Below are positions 4,105 to 64,000 of a DNA stretch of 64,000 nt, piece after piece (position 1 is the first letter of the stretch; each line of letters starts with the position of its first letter). The DNA lies in the NCBI GenBank assembly GCA_043817235.1, contig JBDRHA010000008.1, positions 112 through 64,111 of the forward strand. Reading direction: 5' to 3'. Made by a program: the position numbers and the translations under genes. The notes under the pieces were generated by a model. The model saw only the letters and a list, made by a program, of their open reading frames with translations, did not search any database and was not told the DNA's origin. This DNA is from Candidatus Shapirobacteria bacterium. GTDB lineage: Bacteria > Patescibacteriota > Microgenomatia > UBA12405 > BS750m-G30.

Positions 4105-4422
4105 ATGTTGCTTCCGTCTCATATTTTATCAAGCGTATTTATTTTAAGAACTTTATCAGTTTCATCTCTGTCCATCATGTACAATTTTGAAACTATAACT
4201 CTCTCAATCGCCTTTCAGATGCTTCCAGATCTAGATATTTTCTGGGCTAAAAAGCTTAATTCCCACCACGTTACTTATTTTCATTCTCCGCTTTTTTGGG
4301 TTACTACTTTCATAGTTTTTTATATTATTAATTCTATATTCAACTTATTCGGAAATTGGCTCCTCTATTTATATATTGTTCAAATAATCTTGCATTTATT
4401 TTTTGACTTTACCACTGGTTGA
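4105..4422 (+). CDS. DUF457/YdjM-like membrane-bound metal-dependent hydrolase (possible internal TGA, see findings)
   Basis: Start moved to internal Met after overlap with upstream ORF; multi-TM with LPDLDIF...H...HSPLFW motifs reminiscent of YdjM family; frame stays open past the TGA at 4420-4422. Confidence 0.3.
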   Translation: MLLPSHILSSVFILRTLSVSSLSIMYNFETITLSIAFQMLPDLDIFWAKKLNSHHVTYFHSPLFWVTTFIVFYIINSIFNLFGNWLLYLYIVQIILHLFFDFTTG

Positions 4423-4547
4423 ACTGCCGGTATCCCGCTTTTTTATCCGTTTGCGAAAAAAGAATTTAGTTTTTTACCACTAAACAAAATGCAAGGCGAC
4501 TTTCACCTTTTTGGGCAGCAATATCGGAATAAATCTCAGGCCTCATT

Positions 4548-4624
4548 TGGTGTCCCCGGAGAGAGTCGAACTCCCGACCTTTCGCTTAGAAGGCGAACGC
4601 TCTATCCGCCTGAGCTACGGGGAC
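4548..4624 (-). tRNA. tRNA-Arg (anticodon TCT), CCA encoded
   Basis: Reverse complement folds as cloverleaf: acceptor gtccccg/cggggac, anticodon stem ttcgc/gcgaa, loop cttctaa, T-loop ttcgact; 77 nt. Confidence 0.85.
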
Positions 4625-4699
4625 TCATGTATATTTTATCAAAACGGGAAAGAACTCCCGACCTAAAGAAACTTTTCACTTATATTTTTTAACTGATTT

Positions 4700-4775
4700 T
4701 GGGGTGGCTGAGGGGATTTGAACCCCCAACTTTCCGCTCCACAAGCGGACGCTCTGCCGTTGAGCTACAGCCACC
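4700..4775 (-). tRNA. tRNA-His (anticodon GTG) with encoded G-1 and discriminator C, CCA encoded
   Basis: Reverse complement g-gtggctg...tccgc-ttgtgga-gcgga...ggggg-ttcaaat-cccct-cagccac-c-cca. Confidence 0.85.
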
Positions 4776-4789
4776 ATATAATTACTTTG

Positions 4790-4863
4790 TCGGAGCGGCG
4801 GGACTTGAACCCGCGACCTCTGCGTCCCAAACGCAGCGCGCTAATCCACTGCGCCACGCTCCG
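4790..4863 (-). tRNA. tRNA-Pro (anticodon TGG), no encoded CCA
   Basis: Reverse complement: acceptor cggagcg/cgctccg, anticodon stem ctgcg/cgcag with loop tttggga, T-arm gcggg-ttcaagt-cccgc. Confidence 0.8.
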
Positions 4864-4883
4864 ATATACCACGTTGTCTCCCG

Positions 4884-4972
4884 TGGTGCCGAAGGTGGGA
4901 TTTGAACCCACACGAACGATAATGTCCACACGCTCCTGAAGCGTGCCTGTCTGCCAATTTCAGCACTTCGGC
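4884..4972 (-). tRNA. tRNA-Leu (anticodon CAG), type II with long variable arm, CCA encoded
   Basis: Reverse complement: acceptor gccgaag/cttcggc, anticodon stem cacgc/gcgtg with loop ttcagga, 17-nt variable arm, T-arm gtggg-ttcaaat-cccac; 89 nt. Confidence 0.8.
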
Positions 4973-5138
4973 TAAATTCTTGTCATTGCGAGTCCCTCGA
5001 CGTCACGTCGGGGGGCGCGGCAATCTCGAACGGGATTGCATTCCGTCTGGGATTGCTTCACTGCGTTCGCAATGACAAAGCAGATTGTCACTCACAGTGA
5101 CATGAACTATTATATCTAATTTAGGCGCTGACCTAAAG

Positions 5139-6494
5139 TCAATTAAGCTCTATGGCATTTGGCCGACAGATTTGGTAGGTAGTGGGGTGAAAAAGAAAGA
5201 TTGCCGGCAACTCTTCCAGCAAATATCTTTGAAAGTCGTGATAAATATTTTTCCGCTCGTCTTTGTTTAGGGTTGCTCGCCCATCTTCCAAAAGTTTATC
5301 TATTCTGGGGTTGCTAAAGCCGGTAATATTGCCGGCTTCATTGCTATGCCAAAATGGATATTGGTCGGGATCTGAAGGAATTAAGCCGTAACCCAGAATA
5401 ATATCAAAGTTTTCTTTATCAGAAATATAAGGAGAAATAAGTAAATTAACTTTTATCCCCAGCTCTTTTTCCCAATTATCTTTAATTTTTTCGGCCCAGT
5501 CGGCCAAATCATAAGTGGTGGTTACCTGAAGCTCCAAGCTGGTTAGTTCTAGTTCTTTTAGCAAAGTTCTTGCCCGGTCAGGGTCAAAAGGATAGGTTTT
5601 TACGTTTGGATTATAAGCCCACGATAAGGGAGAAATTGGGCCAAAGGCCCTTGCTCCCTCTTCCGGCTTTTGAAAAGCATAGGCCAAGGCTTGCCGGACG
5701 CTTTTATCGGAAAAAGGCTCTTTTCGGGTGTTAAAAAATAAAGCCACGTAGCGAGAAGCACTTTCTTTGACAGGAGTAATCCGCAAATTTTCCCAGCTTC
5801 TTAGGAGCTCTATGGAGTCTAGATCGCGAACACAGTCAACCTCTCCCAGTTTAAAGGCGGCAACGAGGCTTTCTTGATCAGGATAAAAACGAAAAGTAAT
5901 TTTTTTGGGGTCCAGTCCGTGCCGGCTCGCTTTTAGAGAAAGATAAGAAATATAGCCGGCACTGGAAAATACTTTTTCAATTTGGTAGTCGCCCAATCCG
6001 ATTAACCCCTTTTTGAGAAGGGGGTTGGCTACTAGGCTAGGTAAGGGCGAAAATGGTTTTTCAATGCTAACTAAAATGGAATAGCCGTCTGGATATTCAA
6101 CGCTAGCCGCTTCAATATCCAGCTGAATATCTTTGCTAAGAAGAGGTGAACCGTCTTGCCAATGAAGAAGAGGATCAAGGTGAAAGAGATACTGTTTTCC
6201 TTGCTCCTTTACTTCCCAAGAGAGAGCTGCTCCTTTTTGGGGAGTGTTATTGGTGGAAAGTTTTGTTAGGCCAAAGGATGTTAGTTCGGCGACTTCCTTG
6301 GGAAGGCGCCCGATTCTGTATTTCCCTAATATGCCCACTGAAACCTGCGAAGGCAAAAAATTTCTTAACAAGGCCTCAAGCTGGCTTCGCAATAAAAAGA
6401 AGCCAATTCCCAAAAAGATTCCTACTCCAAAAATAAATAAATTTCTTTGAAGGAAAATAACAGCGATCTTTGTTTTTCGGAAAACAAAAAACAT
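5139..6494 (-). CDS. ABC transporter substrate-binding protein, family 5 (OppA/DppA-like)
   Basis: 451 aa; N-terminal TM/signal anchor; internal blocks (FGPISPLSWAYNPNV, PFDPDRARTLLKE) typical of SBP_bac_5. Confidence 0.65.
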   Translation of the reverse strand: MFFVFRKTKIAVIFLQRNLFIFGVGIFLGIGFFLLRSQLEALLRNFLPSQVSVGILGKYRIGRLPKEVAELTSFGLTKLSTNNTPQKGAALSWEVKEQGKQYLFHLDPLLHWQDGSPLLSKDIQLDIEAASVEYPDGYSILVSIEKPFSPLPSLVANPLLKKGLIGLGDYQIEKVFSSAGYISYLSLKASRHGLDPKKITFRFYPDQESLVAAFKLGEVDCVRDLDSIELLRSWENLRITPVKESASRYVALFFNTRKEPFSDKSVRQALAYAFQKPEEGARAFGPISPLSWAYNPNVKTYPFDPDRARTLLKELELTSLELQVTTTYDLADWAEKIKDNWEKELGIKVNLLISPYISDKENFDIILGYGLIPSDPDQYPFWHSNEAGNITGFSNPRIDKLLEDGRATLNKDERKNIYHDFQRYLLEELPAIFLFHPTTYQICRPNAIELN

Positions 6495-40878: not shown

Positions 40879-42186
40879 TTACCTTATCGGAGCTGAGCAG
40901 ACTTCCTTGTCGTGGACATAAAGATGTTTGCCGAACACTTTAACGATTTCCCTTTTTTCTTCATCAGCACCATCCCTAAGGACATATTTGGCGTATTCCG
41001 TAAAAGAAACTTCCCCTGAGCCAGGATTAATGTCTTTGAGTAGTAGCACTTGTTCTCGGATTTTCCGATAGGTTTCTATTCCAATTTTAACTTTTGGAGT
41101 CAGCTTAATTTTTTGAGGGTGGTGCATGCTCATAAAATTGATATATCTGATTAGCGCTCCGATCAGTCGTTTTTCGTTGAGCATGGGTTCTTTACATCGT
41201 TTGTTTCTGGCTTTGGAGCATTGGTAGTAGACATGCCTTCTTGGATCACGATGTTTTCTTTTTCTGAATTTTTCTTCGCCGGTGACGGTAGCTCCGCAAC
41301 TGGCACATTTGAAAATGCTTCTAAAGAGTACGTTCCGACTACCCCATTTTGACTTTTTAGGAACCACCAACTTTCTTCTGGTTTCGTTAAATATCTTTTT
41401 GGTAATCAATGGTTTATGCCCACCCTTATACCAATTACCGCTGCCAATCGAGTATTCGAATTCACCATAATAAAACGGATCGCCAAGCATTCGGTAAACT
41501 TGGCTCAAAGTTAATGGCTTGCCGGATTTATTATTAAAACCAACCTTGTCAGCCCATTTTTTAATTTGCCTACCGCTTTCTCCATTTATTACCCTGCTAA
41601 ACATTTCGGTTATGTATTTACCTCTGTCTGGGTCAACAGCGATATCTTTCTTACCAGCAAATGAGCGGTTAATATAACCGATTGGCGATGGCCCTGGTCG
41701 CCAGCCCATTTCACACTTGGCTCGGATTCCTCTTTTGACATTTATTCCCCTGTTATCGTTTTCTAACTTCGCCTGACTACATAAAATCATTAGCAGAAAC
41801 TTTTCGTTGGGATTATTAGAGAAACTTTGAGAGAAAGTTCGTATCTGGAGTAGTTTTTCCTGATCCATCAAATCAACCAGCATTCCCAAATCGCCAGCAT
41901 TACGACTCAATCGATCCGGTGCCCAAGTTAAAATGCCGCTAAATTTCCCCTGAGCAACATCAGCCAGAAGCTTGTTAAAAACTGGTCGGGTACTGGAGAT
42001 CTTGGCCGAATGGCTTTCTTGATAAATCTCTAAGATTTCAAGGCTATCCCGTTTGGCCAGAGTTTTCATTTCCTTTATCTGTGATCCGATTGACATTGCT
42101 TGTCGTTCGTCTGACTCGCTAGACTTTCTGGCATAAAGGCAATAGTTGATCAAGTCGTTTTGGGTAGCGCTTTCTATCATCAACAC
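40879..42186 (-). CDS. Large serine recombinase (resolvase/invertase catalytic domain + recombinase + zinc-ribbon)
   Basis: 435 aa; catalytic CLYARKSSESDE (Y-x-R-x-S), recombinase-domain region, Cys cluster CASCGA...C...C. Confidence 0.8.
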   Translation of the reverse strand: MLMIESATQNDLINYCLYARKSSESDERQAMSIGSQIKEMKTLAKRDSLEILEIYQESHSAKISSTRPVFNKLLADVAQGKFSGILTWAPDRLSRNAGDLGMLVDLMDQEKLLQIRTFSQSFSNNPNEKFLLMILCSQAKLENDNRGINVKRGIRAKCEMGWRPGPSPIGYINRSFAGKKDIAVDPDRGKYITEMFSRVINGESGRQIKKWADKVGFNNKSGKPLTLSQVYRMLGDPFYYGEFEYSIGSGNWYKGGHKPLITKKIFNETRRKLVVPKKSKWGSRNVLFRSIFKCASCGATVTGEEKFRKRKHRDPRRHVYYQCSKARNKRCKEPMLNEKRLIGALIRYINFMSMHHPQKIKLTPKVKIGIETYRKIREQVLLLKDINPGSGEVSFTEYAKYVLRDGADEEKREIVKVFGKHLYVHDKEVCSAPIR

Positions 42187-42234
42187 AAGGAATGACGCAA
42201 AGGGAAGGCTAAGTCAAGGCCCAAACGATGAATT

Positions 42235-43305
42235 TTAAATCTTTGCTAGTTGCTTAAGGAGTTGCTCGAAAGCTTTGATAGAGTAGTCCTTTATTCGCCA
42301 TTTAGCCATTATACCGAAAGAGGTTTTCATTTTTTCTGAAATTTCAGCTTCGGGAATTACCTCTTTGATTATTTTTCTCGATTCTTGGTCAATGTTTTTA
42401 GTGCCCCAAAATTCCAATTTTGGACCTTGGTTACCAGCAACTATTGGAAAGGAAATTGTTATCTTGTCACCAATGCTTGTTGTCACATAAAAATTTAAGT
42501 TTCTGGGAGTTTTGACAACAGCAACATTTTTCACCTCTTTCCCCCTTTCCTTTAATTGGTTAAAAAAGATGATCAACTTTTTAATATTTTTTTCTTCAGC
42601 TAATCCCTGATATGCTTCTACAAAATCTTCATCTGTCGGAATACTTCGGGTTGATTTAACTCCAAGGTCCTTTTTAACTTCTGCGCCGAATAACTTCGGA
42701 ATCAGAATTTCAAAGCCTTTGTGTTTGTAAAATTCCAGCTCAACTGCGTAAACGGTAAACTCACTGTTGTTATTTAAGAAGATAATCAGATCCTTTAATT
42801 GAGGATGAAGATGATCCATGAGGACTACAAACTTAAAGTTGCCGTCACTCAGATTTCTTCTGGTGTTTTCCAAAAGGTTGTCGGTTTCGTCTTCTGAGAT
42901 ACCGAAAAACTCCCCCAGCCTTTGACTTAAGGTTTTATTAAAATCCTTATTGGTATTAAGACTAACTTGTTCGACGAAATCGGTAAAATCTCGGTAATTC
43001 GACCAAAGTGATGCTCCGTAATCCAGAACCTGCGCAACCACCATTCTTTTATCCGGATTTTTGTAAAGCTTCGTTTCAATTAGATAAATCTCCCCCTCTC
43101 TATCCACACCCAAAGCATCAATCGATCCACTTTTTGTTGTAAACTCACGAGCTAAGATTAAAAGTCTTATGTCTTCTTTAATATCATAAAGGGGAATACT
43201 TTCGGGATTGTCATAAATATACTGTTGAAGATGATCTTCAAGTTCAAAATTGCTCTTGTTTATTTTGATCGCGTTCTTGCCATTTTTTGAGACGATGATT
43301 GCCAT
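42235..43305 (-). CDS. Restriction-endonuclease-like (PD-(D/E)XK fold) protein, family unassigned (Shedu/DUF4263-like possible)
   Basis: 356 aa; N-terminal GSIDALGVDREGEIYLIETKLYKN ... QVLDY fits D-(x)n-E-x-K nuclease core. Confidence 0.35.
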   Translation of the reverse strand: MAIIVSKNGKNAIKINKSNFELEDHLQQYIYDNPESIPLYDIKEDIRLLILAREFTTKSGSIDALGVDREGEIYLIETKLYKNPDKRMVVAQVLDYGASLWSNYRDFTDFVEQVSLNTNKDFNKTLSQRLGEFFGISEDETDNLLENTRRNLSDGNFKFVVLMDHLHPQLKDLIIFLNNNSEFTVYAVELEFYKHKGFEILIPKLFGAEVKKDLGVKSTRSIPTDEDFVEAYQGLAEEKNIKKLIIFFNQLKERGKEVKNVAVVKTPRNLNFYVTTSIGDKITISFPIVAGNQGPKLEFWGTKNIDQESRKIIKEVIPEAEISEKMKTSFGIMAKWRIKDYSIKAFEQLLKQLAKI

Positions 43306-43481
43306 TTACCCTCCAGTTATTTTTAGCTGGAGGGTTTAAATGATAAAGGCTCCCCTCCAGCTGATGGTCCTTACGGAATCCACCCGCCAACCTTTCGATT
43401 GGTGACCTGCAGAAGGCAACACTGACGAGGAGCTCTCGTCCCTTCTGCAGGACTTTCTTGCCATGCCCCGATTATTCGGGG
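43306..43481 (-). promoter_or_regulatory. GC-rich structured 5' leader of the 42235-43305 gene with alternative RBS-sequestering helices
   Basis: On the minus-strand RNA: hairpin ccccgaauaaucgggg; long hairpin ccugcagaagg...ccuucugcagg; then cagcuggagggg / cccuccagcu / cuggaggg(uaa)AUG, where the middle segment can pair with either neighbour. Confidence 0.35.
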
Positions 43482-43617
43482 TTTAGGCAATATTTAATGG
43501 TAACGTTTTTTATTTTGATATTTTTAGTGATTTAATAAAGAAGCAAAACAACACAGATCTCCTGATTCCAGCCATAATCAATCTAAGGACCTCAGTTTAA
43601 TTAAGGCTAAATATTGC

Positions 43618-61828: not shown

Positions 61829-61922
61829 AAGATTATTTTAAAAGCTCATTAGCCTAAACATCAAGGCATTTACTAAATGCACCTAGTATTGGTGCGTTTG
61901 TTTGACGAAATCCGAACCTTTT

Positions 61923-62041
61923 TTGAACGGAACTGACGGCGCGCTTCGCGCGCCAAACTGAACGCTCGGGCGGGCAAAAAGGAAGGGGGTTGGGGGGAAG
62001 GAATTTTTGCCTGCCCTCGCTTTCCGCCGCCGCCGAATTTC
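61923..62041. repeat. Left arm of long GC-rich inverted repeat (partner at 63882-64000)
   Basis: 119 bp, reverse complement of 63882-64000 with 3 mismatches; contains ggcgcgc-ttc-gcgcgcc hairpin and G-run ggaagggggttggggggaagg. Confidence 0.75.
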
Positions 62042-62069
62042 TTGCCAACAAAGTTGGCGCGCCGCTAAC

Positions 62070-62405
62070 TTATTGTAAACCAAACAATAATCTTACGCCA
62101 ACTCCAACAAAAATTGAAAACACGTTCGCTATCCCCGAAACAATCAGTGAACGCTTCCAGTTTAGGTTAAATGCTAATTTATACCAAATCATTTCTATTA
62201 GAAATACTCCAAACTCAACTGGAATATATGGTGCATTTTGCACACGCAAAAAATATATGACTAGAGGGTGAGTTAAAGAGTTGATAAGAAATATCGCAAC
62301 TATCCATTGCCAAATTTCCCTCGGGCGTTGTATCGCGAGAATGATTGCGATTTCCGAAATGATTGTCGTGGCGTACGCGAGCAAAATTGCATTTTCGATA
62401 AACAT
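62070..62405 (-). CDS. Small membrane protein (3-4 TM), unknown function
   Basis: 111-aa hydrophobic ORF within the IR-flanked cassette. Confidence 0.35.
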   Translation of the reverse strand: MFIENAILLAYATTIISEIAIILAIQRPREIWQWIVAIFLINSLTHPLVIYFLRVQNAPYIPVEFGVFLIEMIWYKLAFNLNWKRSLIVSGIANVFSIFVGVGVRLLFGLQ

Positions 62406-63553
62406 TATTTCTGGCGTTTTTTAAGTAAGAAGAAAATAATTATTCCGACAAGCGCAAGAATTGGTAAATAGACGTACACCCGCATTAACGGATTTTTAGA
62501 ATTAACAAGTAGATCAATTTTTTTCTCTGGTGTTGGCTCATCCAACGGCGTAGCTGTAGTTGAATTTTCAATGGTGGTAGTTACGGGAGTATTATTTACT
62601 GGTTCATTTGTGCTTATGAACGCAAGAATTTTTTTGATTAAAGAATCGTCTCTTTTCTGAATGGGCCCATAATCTCCGCTAATAGCCACAGCGTCTGGGT
62701 ACTTATTTATGACTTCTTGTGATAATCGGTCAATAGTGTTGAAATCTGTTTTATGAGAGTTAATAAATTCGCCGTAAGATGCTTTACATCCCATAAGTTC
62801 AATTGCTGAAAGTGGATCTAATTTTTTAGTTGCGTCAAAACTGAAATCCCTATTATTGCCGAGTTTCCAAATAATATTTTTTTCAGAAACATCGTTATAT
62901 TGAGTAACGCTGAGTTGATGTTCAACTCGGATACGAGTATCGCACGATTTAATTGTGCTTTCTAATTGTTTAGCAAGATTTGTATATAATGTTTTTATTT
63001 CAAGATAAGATTGGTCGTTTGATATTTTTTGTTCTTCCTCGGACATAGAAGAGATAAAGGCGGTTATGGGAATACCAAAATCATACTTGGTTGGGAAAAG
63101 ACTATTAGCAGTGATTCCTGTAAAATGAATGTCAGCTGATCGTGTAACGCCAAGCCCTCTATATTCATATGGCCACATTCTTACAATACTTTCACTCGCA
63201 GTAATGTCATCTGTTGGTTTGTATTTTGCGTAATCGCTATACTGCTGGCGTTCTTTGCCGTTTATTATTTGGACACGATAAAGATTTCCTCCCTCGTCAT
63301 CAATCTCATAACATTTTCCCTTTTCCAAAATAACCCACGGCTTACCGCGATTTTCACCCACTCGTTGAGAATAATCAAAAAGAAAGAAAAAATCGCTTTT
63401 TAAGTTTTCCGGATTTATAACGCTGAGACAAGTAATTTTATTGTCCTTTACCCAATAAGTGATATTTGGGCCTCCGTCGTCTGCCCTAACAATACTAACA
63501 ACTCCCAAACCCACCACTAACGAAATAATTACGCTTAAAAATATTTTTTTCAT
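62405..63553 (-). CDS. Secreted protein with C-terminal TM anchor, unknown function
   Basis: 382 aa; signal peptide, Thr/Pro-rich stalk and C-terminal TM plus basic tail (LLKKRQK). Confidence 0.4.
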   Translation of the reverse strand: MKKIFLSVIISLVVGLGVVSIVRADDGGPNITYWVKDNKITCLSVINPENLKSDFFFLFDYSQRVGENRGKPWVILEKGKCYEIDDEGGNLYRVQIINGKERQQYSDYAKYKPTDDITASESIVRMWPYEYRGLGVTRSADIHFTGITANSLFPTKYDFGIPITAFISSMSEEEQKISNDQSYLEIKTLYTNLAKQLESTIKSCDTRIRVEHQLSVTQYNDVSEKNIIWKLGNNRDFSFDATKKLDPLSAIELMGCKASYGEFINSHKTDFNTIDRLSQEVINKYPDAVAISGDYGPIQKRDDSLIKKILAFISTNEPVNNTPVTTTIENSTTATPLDEPTPEKKIDLLVNSKNPLMRVYVYLPILALVGIIIFFLLKKRQK

Positions 63554-63568
63554 ATATTTATTATAAAT

Positions 63569-63766
63569 TTATTTAATTAAATCATCAACGCTTACCTCAA
63601 GAGCATTTGCTATTTTCTTGAGTGTATCAAGCGTTGGATTTTGGTTTTTACCAGCTTCTATTTTAATAATTGTATTATTAGCGACATCGGCCAATCTCGC
63701 TAATTTTTCTTGAGAAAGCCCCTTGGCTTCCCTAAGTTTTCTAAGTGTTTTTGTAATATTTGACAT
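63569..63766 (-). CDS. XRE-family (Cro/CI-type) HTH transcriptional regulator
   Basis: 65 aa; LRKLREAKGLSQEKLARLADVANNTIIKIEAGK HTH_3 pattern. Confidence 0.75.
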   Translation of the reverse strand: MSNITKTLRKLREAKGLSQEKLARLADVANNTIIKIEAGKNQNPTLDTLKKIANALEVSVDDLIK

Positions 63767-63881
63767 ACTAATATCGTGATAGTAGAATTAAAATATAAGT
63801 GCTATTACCTTTCTATTACTTCAATGCTACACCAAAAATTAAAAATTGTAAACAGGCGGATCATTTAGCTAATCTAAATAC

Positions 63882-64000
63882 GAAATTCGGCGGCGGCGGA
63901 AAGCGAGAGCAGGCAAAAATTCCTTCCCCCCAACCCCCTTCCTTTTTGTCCGCCCGAGTGTTCAGTTTGGCGCGCGAAGCGCGCCGTCAGTTCCGTTCAA
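63882..64000. repeat. Right arm of long GC-rich inverted repeat (runs to window edge)
   Basis: Reverse complement of 61923-62041, 116/119 identical; may extend beyond the window. Confidence 0.75.

Follow-up and report, generated by a model that had tools for sequence, protein, structure and literature searches.

Inverted GC-rich arms around a regulator-led cassette in a Shapirobacteria contig: a probable module of tRNA-targeting, serine recombinase-linked islets in Patescibacteria

Introduction

What are two long, nearly identical and GC-rich inverted repeats doing on either side of a small group of genes in an otherwise AT-rich genome? Our study addresses this question for the segment at positions 61890-64000 of a 64,000-nucleotide (nt) stretch of DNA from a Candidatus Shapirobacteria bacterium (contig JBDRHA010000008.1 of assembly GCA_043817235.1); this stretch, the window, covers almost all of the 64,673-nt source contig. 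The segment holds three genes, the first of them for a regulator of the XRE family, between a pair of inverted repeats that we call arms. A reading made from the letters of the window alone (the original prediction) had recognized this cassette and offered three accounts of its repeats: inversion and phase variation, the termini of a non-autonomous mobile cassette, or two copies of a structured RNA gene. By comparing the window with several hundred loci fetched from many lineages of the Candidate Phyla Radiation (CPR) in JGI, ENA and Logan assemblies, and referred to here by L numbers, we arrive at a proposal that comes closest to the second of these accounts and to which we give a probability of about 0.65: the segment is the cassette module of a recombinase-mobilized, tRNA-targeting integrative islet that is common in Patescibacteria. 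The CPR, or Patescibacteria, have minimal genomes with few recognized mobile elements, and their acquisition of accessory and defence genes is poorly understood.

Results

A repeat search of the window finds the inverted arms at 61923-62041 and 63882-64000, each 119 nt long, 97% complementary and separated by 1840 nt; direct comparison of the two leaves 3 mismatches, as had been predicted. Their GC fraction is 0.62 against 0.38 for the window, which agrees with the description of GC-rich arms in AT-rich DNA, and a blastn search found no third copy within the 64 kb. The two sequence elements pointed out in the arms are both present. One is a GC hairpin, ggcgcgc-ttc-gcgcgcc, at 61938-61954 (plus strand), which lies in the outer part of the arm and is an optional element of some arm subtypes only; the other is a G-rich run, GGAAGGGGGTTGGGGGGAAGG, at 61981-62001, which forms the loop of a core hairpin at 61968-62016 (plus strand) with the stem gggcgggcaaaaa / tttttgcctgccc.

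The suspicion that the right arm might be longer than the window allows proved correct. A profile of 50 related arms, searched with nhmmer, matches the window at 61887-62061 (E=2.9e-45) and at 63992-63876, and thus the true arms exceed 119 nt. The repeat unit is ~176 nt long, and boundary alignment with related loci puts the outer boundary of the left arm at the TGGTG at 61890. This XRE-distal arm (61890-62065, plus strand) is complete: it begins with the TGGTG core, which is common to tRNA 3' ends, and finishes with an inner hairpin, gccaac-aaa-gttggc, followed by gcgccgc. The XRE-proximal arm (63855-64000, minus strand) is truncated by the end of the window, with its outer ~33 nt missing; these are predicted to lie beyond 64000 and to complete the arm as ...GGTTCGGATTTCGTCAAACAAACGCACCA. 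The source contig may itself terminate in the repeat, as do many related contigs. The innermost ~24 nt of the two arms are unlike, with atttag-attag-ctaaat in the proximal arm replacing the distal type, and it is because of these differing inner hairpins that the measured identity stops at 62041 and 63882.

An arm that ends with the window, and possibly with the contig, raises the question of a fold-back or chimeric contig end, the more so as one related contig (L134) contains a suspicious 1.7-kb perfect fold-back. An independent Logan contig, however, reproduces window positions 62021-63700 exactly, from which we conclude that the cassette is no assembly artefact; furthermore, the arms carry 3 differences and unlike inner hairpins, and the same architecture recurs across hundreds of independent assemblies. 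The probability of an artefact is negligible.

Between the arms there are exactly three open reading frames (ORFs), all on the minus strand and co-directional, in line with the predicted three-gene arrangement. The first gene (63569-63766) encodes a 65-residue XRE-family helix-turn-helix regulator (HTH_3, E=4e-18). It is followed by two cargo genes, one for a 382-residue protein with an N-terminal signal or anchor and a C-terminal hydrophobic anchor (62405-63553), the other for a 111-residue hydrophobic, membrane protein (62070-62405) that co-occurs with the 382-residue gene in relatives. Neither cargo protein matched a Pfam or PADLOC family. The 42 database relatives found for the 382-residue protein are all unnamed or annotated as 'hypothetical protein', the few with an organism label coming from CPR metagenome-assembled genomes (MAGs), and no functional name or Pfam domain occurs among the 42 relatives in total of the two cargo proteins.

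A promoter-like site, TTTACA-17-TAGCAT, lies on the minus strand at 63824-63852, in the interval between the proximal arm and the XRE gene; it is inside the repeat-bounded segment and is conserved in L008 and L030. The XRE gene, this site and the adjoining arm together show 86-90% nucleotide identity between the window and L008, L029, L030, L050 and L066. Despite this common leading end, the pairs that we analysed in L008, L030, L050 and L066 carry different cargos, a sixth cargo stands behind an identical XRE protein in L120, and the same or a near-identical XRE protein leads at least six different cargos overall. The XRE protein presumably controls the cargo operon through this promoter just inside the proximal arm.

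Searching for further copies of the arm yielded more than 200 public loci of Patescibacteria with the same arm. The exact 21-nt G-rich loop is present in more than 118 GTDB species-representative contigs, nearly all of them Patescibacteria MAGs, frequently at contig ends and frequently as inverted pairs; the outer 28 nt of the window's arm subtype were matched in more than 120 metagenome contigs, which added 120 loci. Three arm motifs, including the 21-mer loop, had no match in IMG/VR viral contigs, and a viral origin was dropped from consideration.

Alignment of 50 copies resolves the conserved ~176-nt unit into three parts. The outer part, H, opens with TGGCGGTG, TGGCTCC or TGGTGCG according to subtype and holds a conserved ..CGAAC-TTTTTTGA motif; the core hairpin has the form gggcgggcaaaaa-loop-tttttgcccgccc; and the tail, T, reads ..CCGCCGCCGCCGAATTTCG, then a short hairpin, then GCGCCGCC. 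The loop is exact in 34 of the 74 arms that were retrieved through other arm sequence, the remainder differing in the length of the G-run or in single bases, and its conservation is therefore no artefact of the search.

The fetched loci contain 44 inverted pairs of arms, in every one of which the tails point inward, enclosing 1.3-4.5 kb of DNA (median 1.9 kb). The first gene encodes an XRE protein of 65-73 residues in ~40 of the 44 pairs and a TetR or ArsR regulator in 2; all genes are co-directional in 41 pairs, and opposite-strand ORFs occur in the other 3. The inner hairpin of the XRE-side arm is ATTTCGC-TTT-GCGAAAT, that of the far arm GCCAGT-GAA-ACTGGC or a compensated variant. The repeat shared by the two arms of a pair has a median length of 154 nt and a median identity of 99.3%, a range that includes the 97.5% of the window, whereas arms of different elements diverge considerably. 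The cargo is diverse: Pfam families include N6/N4 and C5 methyltransferases, the restriction enzymes Tsp45I, ThaI and DpnI, GmrSD and McrBC, along with serpins, bPH_2 proteins, HisRS-like proteins, solute symporters, ArsA, an Ltp-type lipoprotein, hydrolases and many unknowns. The cassettes are general carriers of accessory genes with a strong defence component.

The survey also turned up forms that depart from the standard pair. Solo palindromic forms, in which an outer arm, a core hairpin and an inverted outer arm stand together with no cassette, occur at L024 3305-3516, L002 7864-7997 and L077 1-161; one such form sits right after a tRNA-Ser gene, and other arms have a core loop that is reversed with respect to its flanks. 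Such forms may have arisen by deletion between hairpin stems, or they may be derivatives resembling miniature inverted-repeat transposable elements (MITEs). Tandem partial arms of core and tail, two recombinase/cassette units and one arm pair in direct orientation, seen in L195 (1830-2119), L128 and L225, hint at the accretion of several islets. The 21-mer also matches contigs of Rhodocyclales/Betaproteobacteria (L007, L013, L022, L032, L053, L058 and others), where the hairpin is a different, simpler one (cccccttccccg-GGAAGGGGG...) with no relation to the arms of Patescibacteria. Contigs labelled 'uncultured Gammaproteobacteria' (L005, L026, L031, L039, L049, L051, L080 and L081) bear typical arms of the CPR together with XRE cassettes and AT-rich genes; all eight are GTDB 'binchicken' MAGs, and their labels or binning look wrong.

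An all-against-all comparison of flanks revealed a region of ~1.7 kb just outside one arm that retains 72-98% nucleotide identity across many loci. The protein encoded there has ~500 residues and the Resolvase, Recombinase and Zn_ribbon_recom domains of a large serine recombinase (LSR); among solved structures, SPbeta SprA and the A118 integrase come nearest to it (PDB sequence matches of low similarity, E~1e-10). The LSR gene starts at a distance of 140-340 nt from the arm, on the outer side, and is divergent from the XRE gene, pointing away from the cassette. Among the 28 GTDB and metagenome loci whose flank is long enough, 22 have an LSR start within 800 nt outside the XRE-side arm, a count that includes 16 of the 18 loci of the window's own subtype, as compared with 8 of 60 arms that face cargo 3' ends. 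The remark that nothing in the annotated genes explains the repeats is consequently true of the window and not of its relatives, where a recombinase adjoins the XRE-side arm from outside. The window's own recombinase is predicted to start ~150-350 nt past 64000, on the plus strand and beyond a spacer of 60-130 nt, and to end on a minus-strand tRNA gene with a 3' end in CACCA, or it may have been lost as in some relatives. The window-specific junction pattern had no match in metagenome contigs, and exact matches to the proteins led to cassette-sized contigs only.

Two further recombinase loci were noted. On the minus strand of the window, at 40879-43489, a LOOT RNA (Rfam RF03000, 76 bits; 43363-43489) lies directly upstream of a 356-residue ORF (42235-43305) with no Pfam family, which is followed by an LSR gene (40879-42186; Resolvase, Recombinase and Zn_ribbon_recom); the three may form a second recombinase-associated module with an RNA of its own. 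In L134, positions 1-1717 and 4229-5945 form a 1717-nt inverted repeat of 99.9% identity that places an LSR gene on both sides of one cassette; this is a genuine large duplication or else a fold-back of the assembly through the arms.

The far end of the recombinase gene leads to tRNA genes. The stop codon of the LSR gene touches or overlaps a tRNA gene of the other strand, at that gene's 3' end, in all 10 GTDB loci and in 13 of 16 metagenome loci. In reverse complement, the 3' end of the neighbouring tRNA reads as the first 5-8 nt of the arm, in a subtype-specific manner: the arm start TGGCGG pairs with tRNA-Ser (..CCGCCA), TGGCTCCG with tRNA-Asn (..CGGAGCCA), and TGGTG, the start in the window's subtype, with a range of tRNAs ending in CACCA. 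A repeat of the tRNA 3' end thus stands at the boundaries of relatives, and the distal arm of the window starts with the TGGTG at 61890. Between the recombinase start and the proximal arm there is a spacer of ~60-330 nt, here called U, which repeats in inverted orientation the last ~20-50 codons of the recombinase gene.

These repeats of the tRNA end at the ends of the arms define three kinds of junction, which resemble the attachment (att) sites of an integrated element. For 8 loci, the junction of recombinase end and tRNA and the junction of U and arm agree in all 62 nt ahead of TGGTG, and the sequences diverge after TGGTG into the body of the tRNA at the recombinase end and into the arm at U. 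The left junction of the window, at 61890, consists of host flank, TGGTG and arm, with an arm side that is the same as in these 8 loci. Host flank, TGGTG and arm thus correspond to an attL-like site (B-O-P'), and recombinase end, TGGTG and tRNA to an attR-like site (P-O-B'), the two in direct orientation, while U, TGGTG and arm make up an attP-like site (P-O-P') that is kept as an intact, inverted copy inside the element. As read from the sequences, this set of junctions is the signature of a putative site-specific integration at the very 3' terminus of tRNA genes. In L175, a locus disrupted by an insertion sequence (IS), the recombinase gene reads directly into a distal-type arm, which could be a circle junction or an alternative integration orientation.

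Two other features of the arm ends and flanks were considered and set aside. A tRNA-like fold of the reverse strand was rejected: its resemblance to a tRNA is confined to the last 5-8 nt and a loose TTCGAA motif, and no tRNA is called there by ARAGORN or Rfam. A conserved ORF outside the arms ('MVFFRNFEG') is short, variable in frame and none other than the inverted copy of the last codons of the recombinase. A T-loop-like motif may, as judged by eye, lie 4-5 nt further from the core in the arm than in the tRNA, in the manner of P- versus B-type half-sites of LSRs, but two CGAA motifs in the arm make the offset ambiguous. With regard to tRNA genes themselves, L243 contains, at 2150-2580, several fragments of tRNA-Ser 3' ends in both orientations between an arm and the real tRNA-Ser(gga) gene, and a 144-nt piece of this region is inverted relative to the TruB-side flank of L241; the fragments resemble the remains of old attachment sites. 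Of the eight tRNA genes in the window, none adjoins the cassette; four of these (Arg-tct, His, Pro and Leu-cag) lie within 425 nt on the minus strand at 4548-4972.

The cassette of the window is itself found elsewhere. In L241 the whole unit of arm, XRE gene, 382- and 111-residue genes and arm is 95.5% identical to the window at the nucleotide level over 2009 nt, within 9.4 kb of flank that has no similarity to the window, and another copy, in L243, adjoins a tRNA-Ser gene. As a near-identical cassette with unrelated flanks, it is therefore present at several unrelated sites. L249 holds a 90% identical copy in the order TopA, tRNA-Leu, a C-terminal remnant of a recombinase, XRE gene, 382-residue gene, arm and tRNA-Pro; the remnant is 82% identical to the LSR of the subtype, so that at least this relative keeps the cassette attached to a recombinase/tRNA end. 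Proteins 95-96% identical to the 382-residue protein are also encoded on dozens of contigs of 1.6-2.9 kb from many samples, most of them bounded by fragments of arms, which indicates that assemblers break at the arms.

Both orientations of the cassette occur in these assemblies. L241 and L242, from sister JGI samples, have in common a TruB-side flank of 9.6 kb (99.6% identical) and a cassette that is 100% identical, and the flank joins the cargo-end arm in L241 and the XRE-end arm in L242. The cargo-end arm is joined to this TruB-side flank (A) in L241, L254 and L256, and to the tRNA-Ser-side flank (B) in L243, L244 and L264, with short matches in L253, L255 and L258. Between L241 and L242, a T/C single-nucleotide polymorphism (SNP) located 35 nt away from the inner hairpin goes together with the hairpin type, and any crossover must therefore have fallen in the outer ~136 nt of exact identity. 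These observations suggest that inversion of the cassette probably occurs. The exact repeat, of 136 nt, 1 SNP and 33 nt, exceeds common assembly k-mers, however, and the orientation of a contig may therefore reflect the path chosen by the assembler.

The same data bear on the proposal of phase variation, in which RecA or the neighbouring serine recombinase would flip the 1.8-kb segment and so toggle a surface protein. In its favour are the length of the repeats and their identity of 97-100%, the serine recombinase gene that most relatives have immediately beyond one arm, and the two joins of flank and arm that L241 and L242, with further independent assemblies, display. Yet the promoter-like site (63852-63824), the regulator and all cargo ORFs are internal and nothing reads across the arms, in the window and likewise in relatives, and hence inversion alters no coding or promoter junction. 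Orientation is also biased: the XRE end faces the recombinase in 22 LSR-linked cases, with L184 as the exception and L134, L171 and L190 ambiguous; and where both orientations are assembled, the length of the exact repeat leaves room for a choice by the assembler. Of the suggested phase variation, then, the inversion is probable and the switch is unsupported; inversion looks like a by-product of long identical repeats, and we regard a switch of expression as quite unlikely.

The absence of a target-site duplication is relevant to another account, in which the cassette is a non-autonomous, MITE-flanked composite transposon whose arms are terminal inverted repeats for a DDE transposase encoded elsewhere. 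In keeping with this, terminal inverted repeats are present and start with 5'-TG, palindromic H-core-H' derivatives stand alone in L024 and L002, contigs terminate in the arms as they do at repeats, and rve/IS481-like transposase genes lie inside or beside arms in L048, L175, L223 and L253. No target-site duplication was found at four related pairs with both flanks available, though, the TGGTG and its equivalents being part of the conserved element, and the arm ends are the tRNA-end core common to the recombinase/tRNA junction, which is unexpected from cut-and-paste transposition. No cognate transposase was identified: the only candidates are these sporadic rve-type genes or fragments, which look like secondary IS insertions, one of them splitting U in L175, and the consistently linked gene is the serine recombinase. 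A transposon of this kind is very unlikely. What survives of the suggested non-autonomous cassette is a unit with conserved boundaries, many unrelated loci and exchangeable cargo; the LSR and the lack of both a transposase and a target-site duplication speak against the remainder.

Transposase genes or fragments of rve/IS481-IS3 type recur within or next to the arms and U, at L048 3050-4144, L175 3518-3721, L223 95-304, L253 2450-2854 and L145 6737-7003, which suggests an IS family that prefers these GC hairpins as targets.

The hairpins of the arms call for separate consideration, since the arms could be functional nucleic-acid structures, either copies of a structured RNA or bidirectional terminator or insulator hairpins that would shield an operon of horizontal origin and perhaps of toxic effect. 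They are GC-rich hairpins in an AT-rich genome, placed exactly at both ends of the operon. The core hairpin occurs in three different backbones with compensating changes in its stem, and the inner hairpins exist in compensated versions (GCCAGT/ACTGGC, GCCAAC/GTTGGC, ATTTCGC/GCGAAAT and, in the window, ATTTAG/CTAAAT); such variants argue for selection for hairpin formation, which could act at the level of DNA, of RNA or of a symmetric protein site. For 55 arms, the core and tail helices have 98% of their cells paired. Of the 19 pairs, a single one shows a change in both partners, which occurs in 12 sequences, and 45 of the 55 arms retain a U-G pair.

Against a structured RNA, the core stem is essentially invariant and hence uninformative, minimum free energies are no better than those of shuffled sequences (z = +0.4, -0.7), forward and reverse strands differ in no way in energy, and the loop is found in both orientations relative to its flanks. 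The covariance models of Rfam 15 gave no match to the arms at the gathering threshold, whether in the window or in 18 related loci, where they found tRNAs only, and none that is credible at E<=10, and a consensus scan finds no intrinsic terminator in the arms. With no Rfam family, ordinary folding energy, no strand asymmetry and almost no covariation, the suggested pair of structured RNA genes was not borne out. We consider functional structures unlikely as the explanation of the arms; they could hold alongside the integrative islet, with a terminator, insulator or structural role as an additional function and not an alternative. A closing stem that would pair the 5' TGGCGGTG with a 3' CGCCGCC was also considered and dropped, the TGGCTCC subtype being incapable of forming it.

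Discussion

Our comparison of arms, flanks and cargo suggests a model for a compact integrative islet. A complete copy would consist of a tRNA gene, an LSR gene on the opposite strand with its stop codon over the CCA end of the tRNA, the spacer U, an arm, the promoter, XRE gene and cargo, an inverted arm, and host DNA. The LSR would integrate and excise the islet at the CCA end of tRNA genes, and the ~176-nt arms would represent the P' side of the attachment site together with GC-rich hairpins. Because the arms are kept nearly identical and are widely shared, they may double as homology handles for the exchange of cargo and for occasional inversion by homologous recombination. The model draws on what the loci display directly: the anatomy of the cassette, its family, the linkage to LSR and tRNA genes, the identities at the junctions, the different insertion sites and the two orientations in assemblies.

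Several considerations weigh against this proposal, and account for the restraint with which we hold it. The related loci were gathered by exact-match searches with arm motifs, and the frequencies derived from them are biased. In relatives, roughly one XRE-side arm in five lacks an LSR, and L241-L244, the closest relatives of the window's cassette, have none within reach; the window copy may therefore be an immobilized remnant. The window displays neither a recombinase nor a tRNA gene beside the cassette, because its XRE-side arm is cut at 64000, and the sole LSR that it contains (40879-42186) is 20 kb distant and 35% identical to the arm-linked enzymes. LSR attachment sites need only ~40-50 bp, and the model leaves ~130 nt of GC-rich hairpins and the invariant G-rich loop unexplained, as it does the retention of an inverted attP-like copy and the near-identity (~99%) of paired arms. 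Finally, the activity of the recombinase, an excised circle with its empty site and the role of the hairpins are postulates of the model.

A broader and more speculative extension, which we hold only tentatively, is that these islets are a phylum-wide cassette shuttle, in which a clade of LSRs acts at the CCA ends of tRNA genes, the inverted attP-like copy serves as a docking site and the ~176-nt arms are functional and not scars; within this joint claim, the arms would serve in the choice of orientation, in the capture or exchange of cassettes, or in insulation. Such a shuttle, if real, would be the serine-recombinase counterpart of the integron for tiny genomes.

The LSR-tRNA cassette family appears to be undescribed: our literature search found no paper linking large serine recombinases with Patescibacteria, and nothing relevant on inverted repeats or structured RNA in the CPR. 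The islet proposed here would be a compact and widespread element that moves regulator-led cassettes with restriction systems, serpins, transporters, resistance genes and unknown surface proteins. As of 2014, tRNA genes were not a known target of serine recombinases (Islander, PMC4383910), and the short list of serine recombinases with such a target would be enlarged. The family would also supply many natural pairs of recombinase and att site with readable attP-, attL- and attR-like junctions, which are possible tools for genome engineering. With the arm sequences as a handle, metagenomes can be mined for cassette cargo, candidate new defence genes among it, and the arms explain why assemblies of these genomes break at such sites.

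Set beside known systems, the islet is best read as neither an expression switch, a classical transposon nor a known RNA gene. The Hin/Gin/Cin switches and other invertons likewise combine inverted repeats with an adjoining serine recombinase, and both orientations are found in assemblies of the islet's relatives; the arms, however, are ~6 times longer than hix or gix, the recombinase is a large, integrase-type enzyme, and no promoter or alternative coding end lies across the repeat. MITE composites, Correia elements, RPE and the GC clusters of yeast mitochondria are comparable as multi-copy, GC-rich hairpin repeats of AT-rich genomes with palindromic solo forms, but the islet has no target-site duplication and no cognate transposase, and its ends are a tRNA-end core tied to a serine recombinase. 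The controller (C-protein) operons of restriction-modification systems have a small helix-turn-helix gene ahead of the restriction-modification genes and a C-box operator; the islet likewise starts with an XRE/HTH_3 gene, but most of its cargos are not restriction-modification genes.

Greater similarity is seen with systems of site-specific recombination. Phage-type large serine integrases (A118, SPbeta SprA, Bxb1 and phiC31) have the same succession of Resolvase, Recombinase and Zn ribbon domains and the same logic of P-O-P', P-O-B' and B-O-P' junctions; the islet differs in its lack of phage genes, in a shared core of 5-8 nt as opposed to 2 nt, and in an intact attP-like copy that persists when integrated. 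Integrons also place a recombinase divergent from, and adjoining, a site that is followed by an exchangeable cassette, with palindromic or hairpin boundaries and diverse cargo, whereas the islet has a serine in place of a tyrosine recombinase (IntI), a single cassette with its own regulator and promoter in place of an array, and boundaries that are inverted and not direct. A looser parallel is provided by the tycheposons of Prochlorococcus, small cargo shuttles at tRNA genes of streamlined genomes with partial tRNA flanks and niche or defence cargo; of 937 elements of the tycheposon type, 27 rely on a large serine recombinase (Hackl et al., bioRxiv 10.1101/2020.12.28.424599). Tycheposons belong to a different host phylum, rely mostly on tyrosine recombinases and possess replication modules, and long inverted arms, an XRE-first layout and a GC-hairpin module are not reported for them.

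The closest described parallel is found in the ssrA islands of Dehalococcoides (PMC3146451). These target the T-loop of tmRNA, whereas the islet targets the extreme CCA end of ordinary tRNA genes of many isoacceptors; the islet is much smaller (3.5-7 kb), has a single recombinase and no 6-gene integration module, and possesses ~176-nt inverted GC-rich arms and an internal inverted attP-like copy, neither of which is described for the ssrA islands. In both, nevertheless, a serine recombinase (DsiB in the ssrA islands) stands at the end of the island beside a tRNA or tRNA-like gene, and dsiB always overlaps attL (McMurdie et al. 2011, PMC3146451). Both also bear cargo and carry no transfer genes, as is typical of integrative mobilizable or cis-mobilizable elements, and in both the recombinase ORF runs at its 3' end into the attachment site or target gene, while the far boundary repeats the 3' end of the target.

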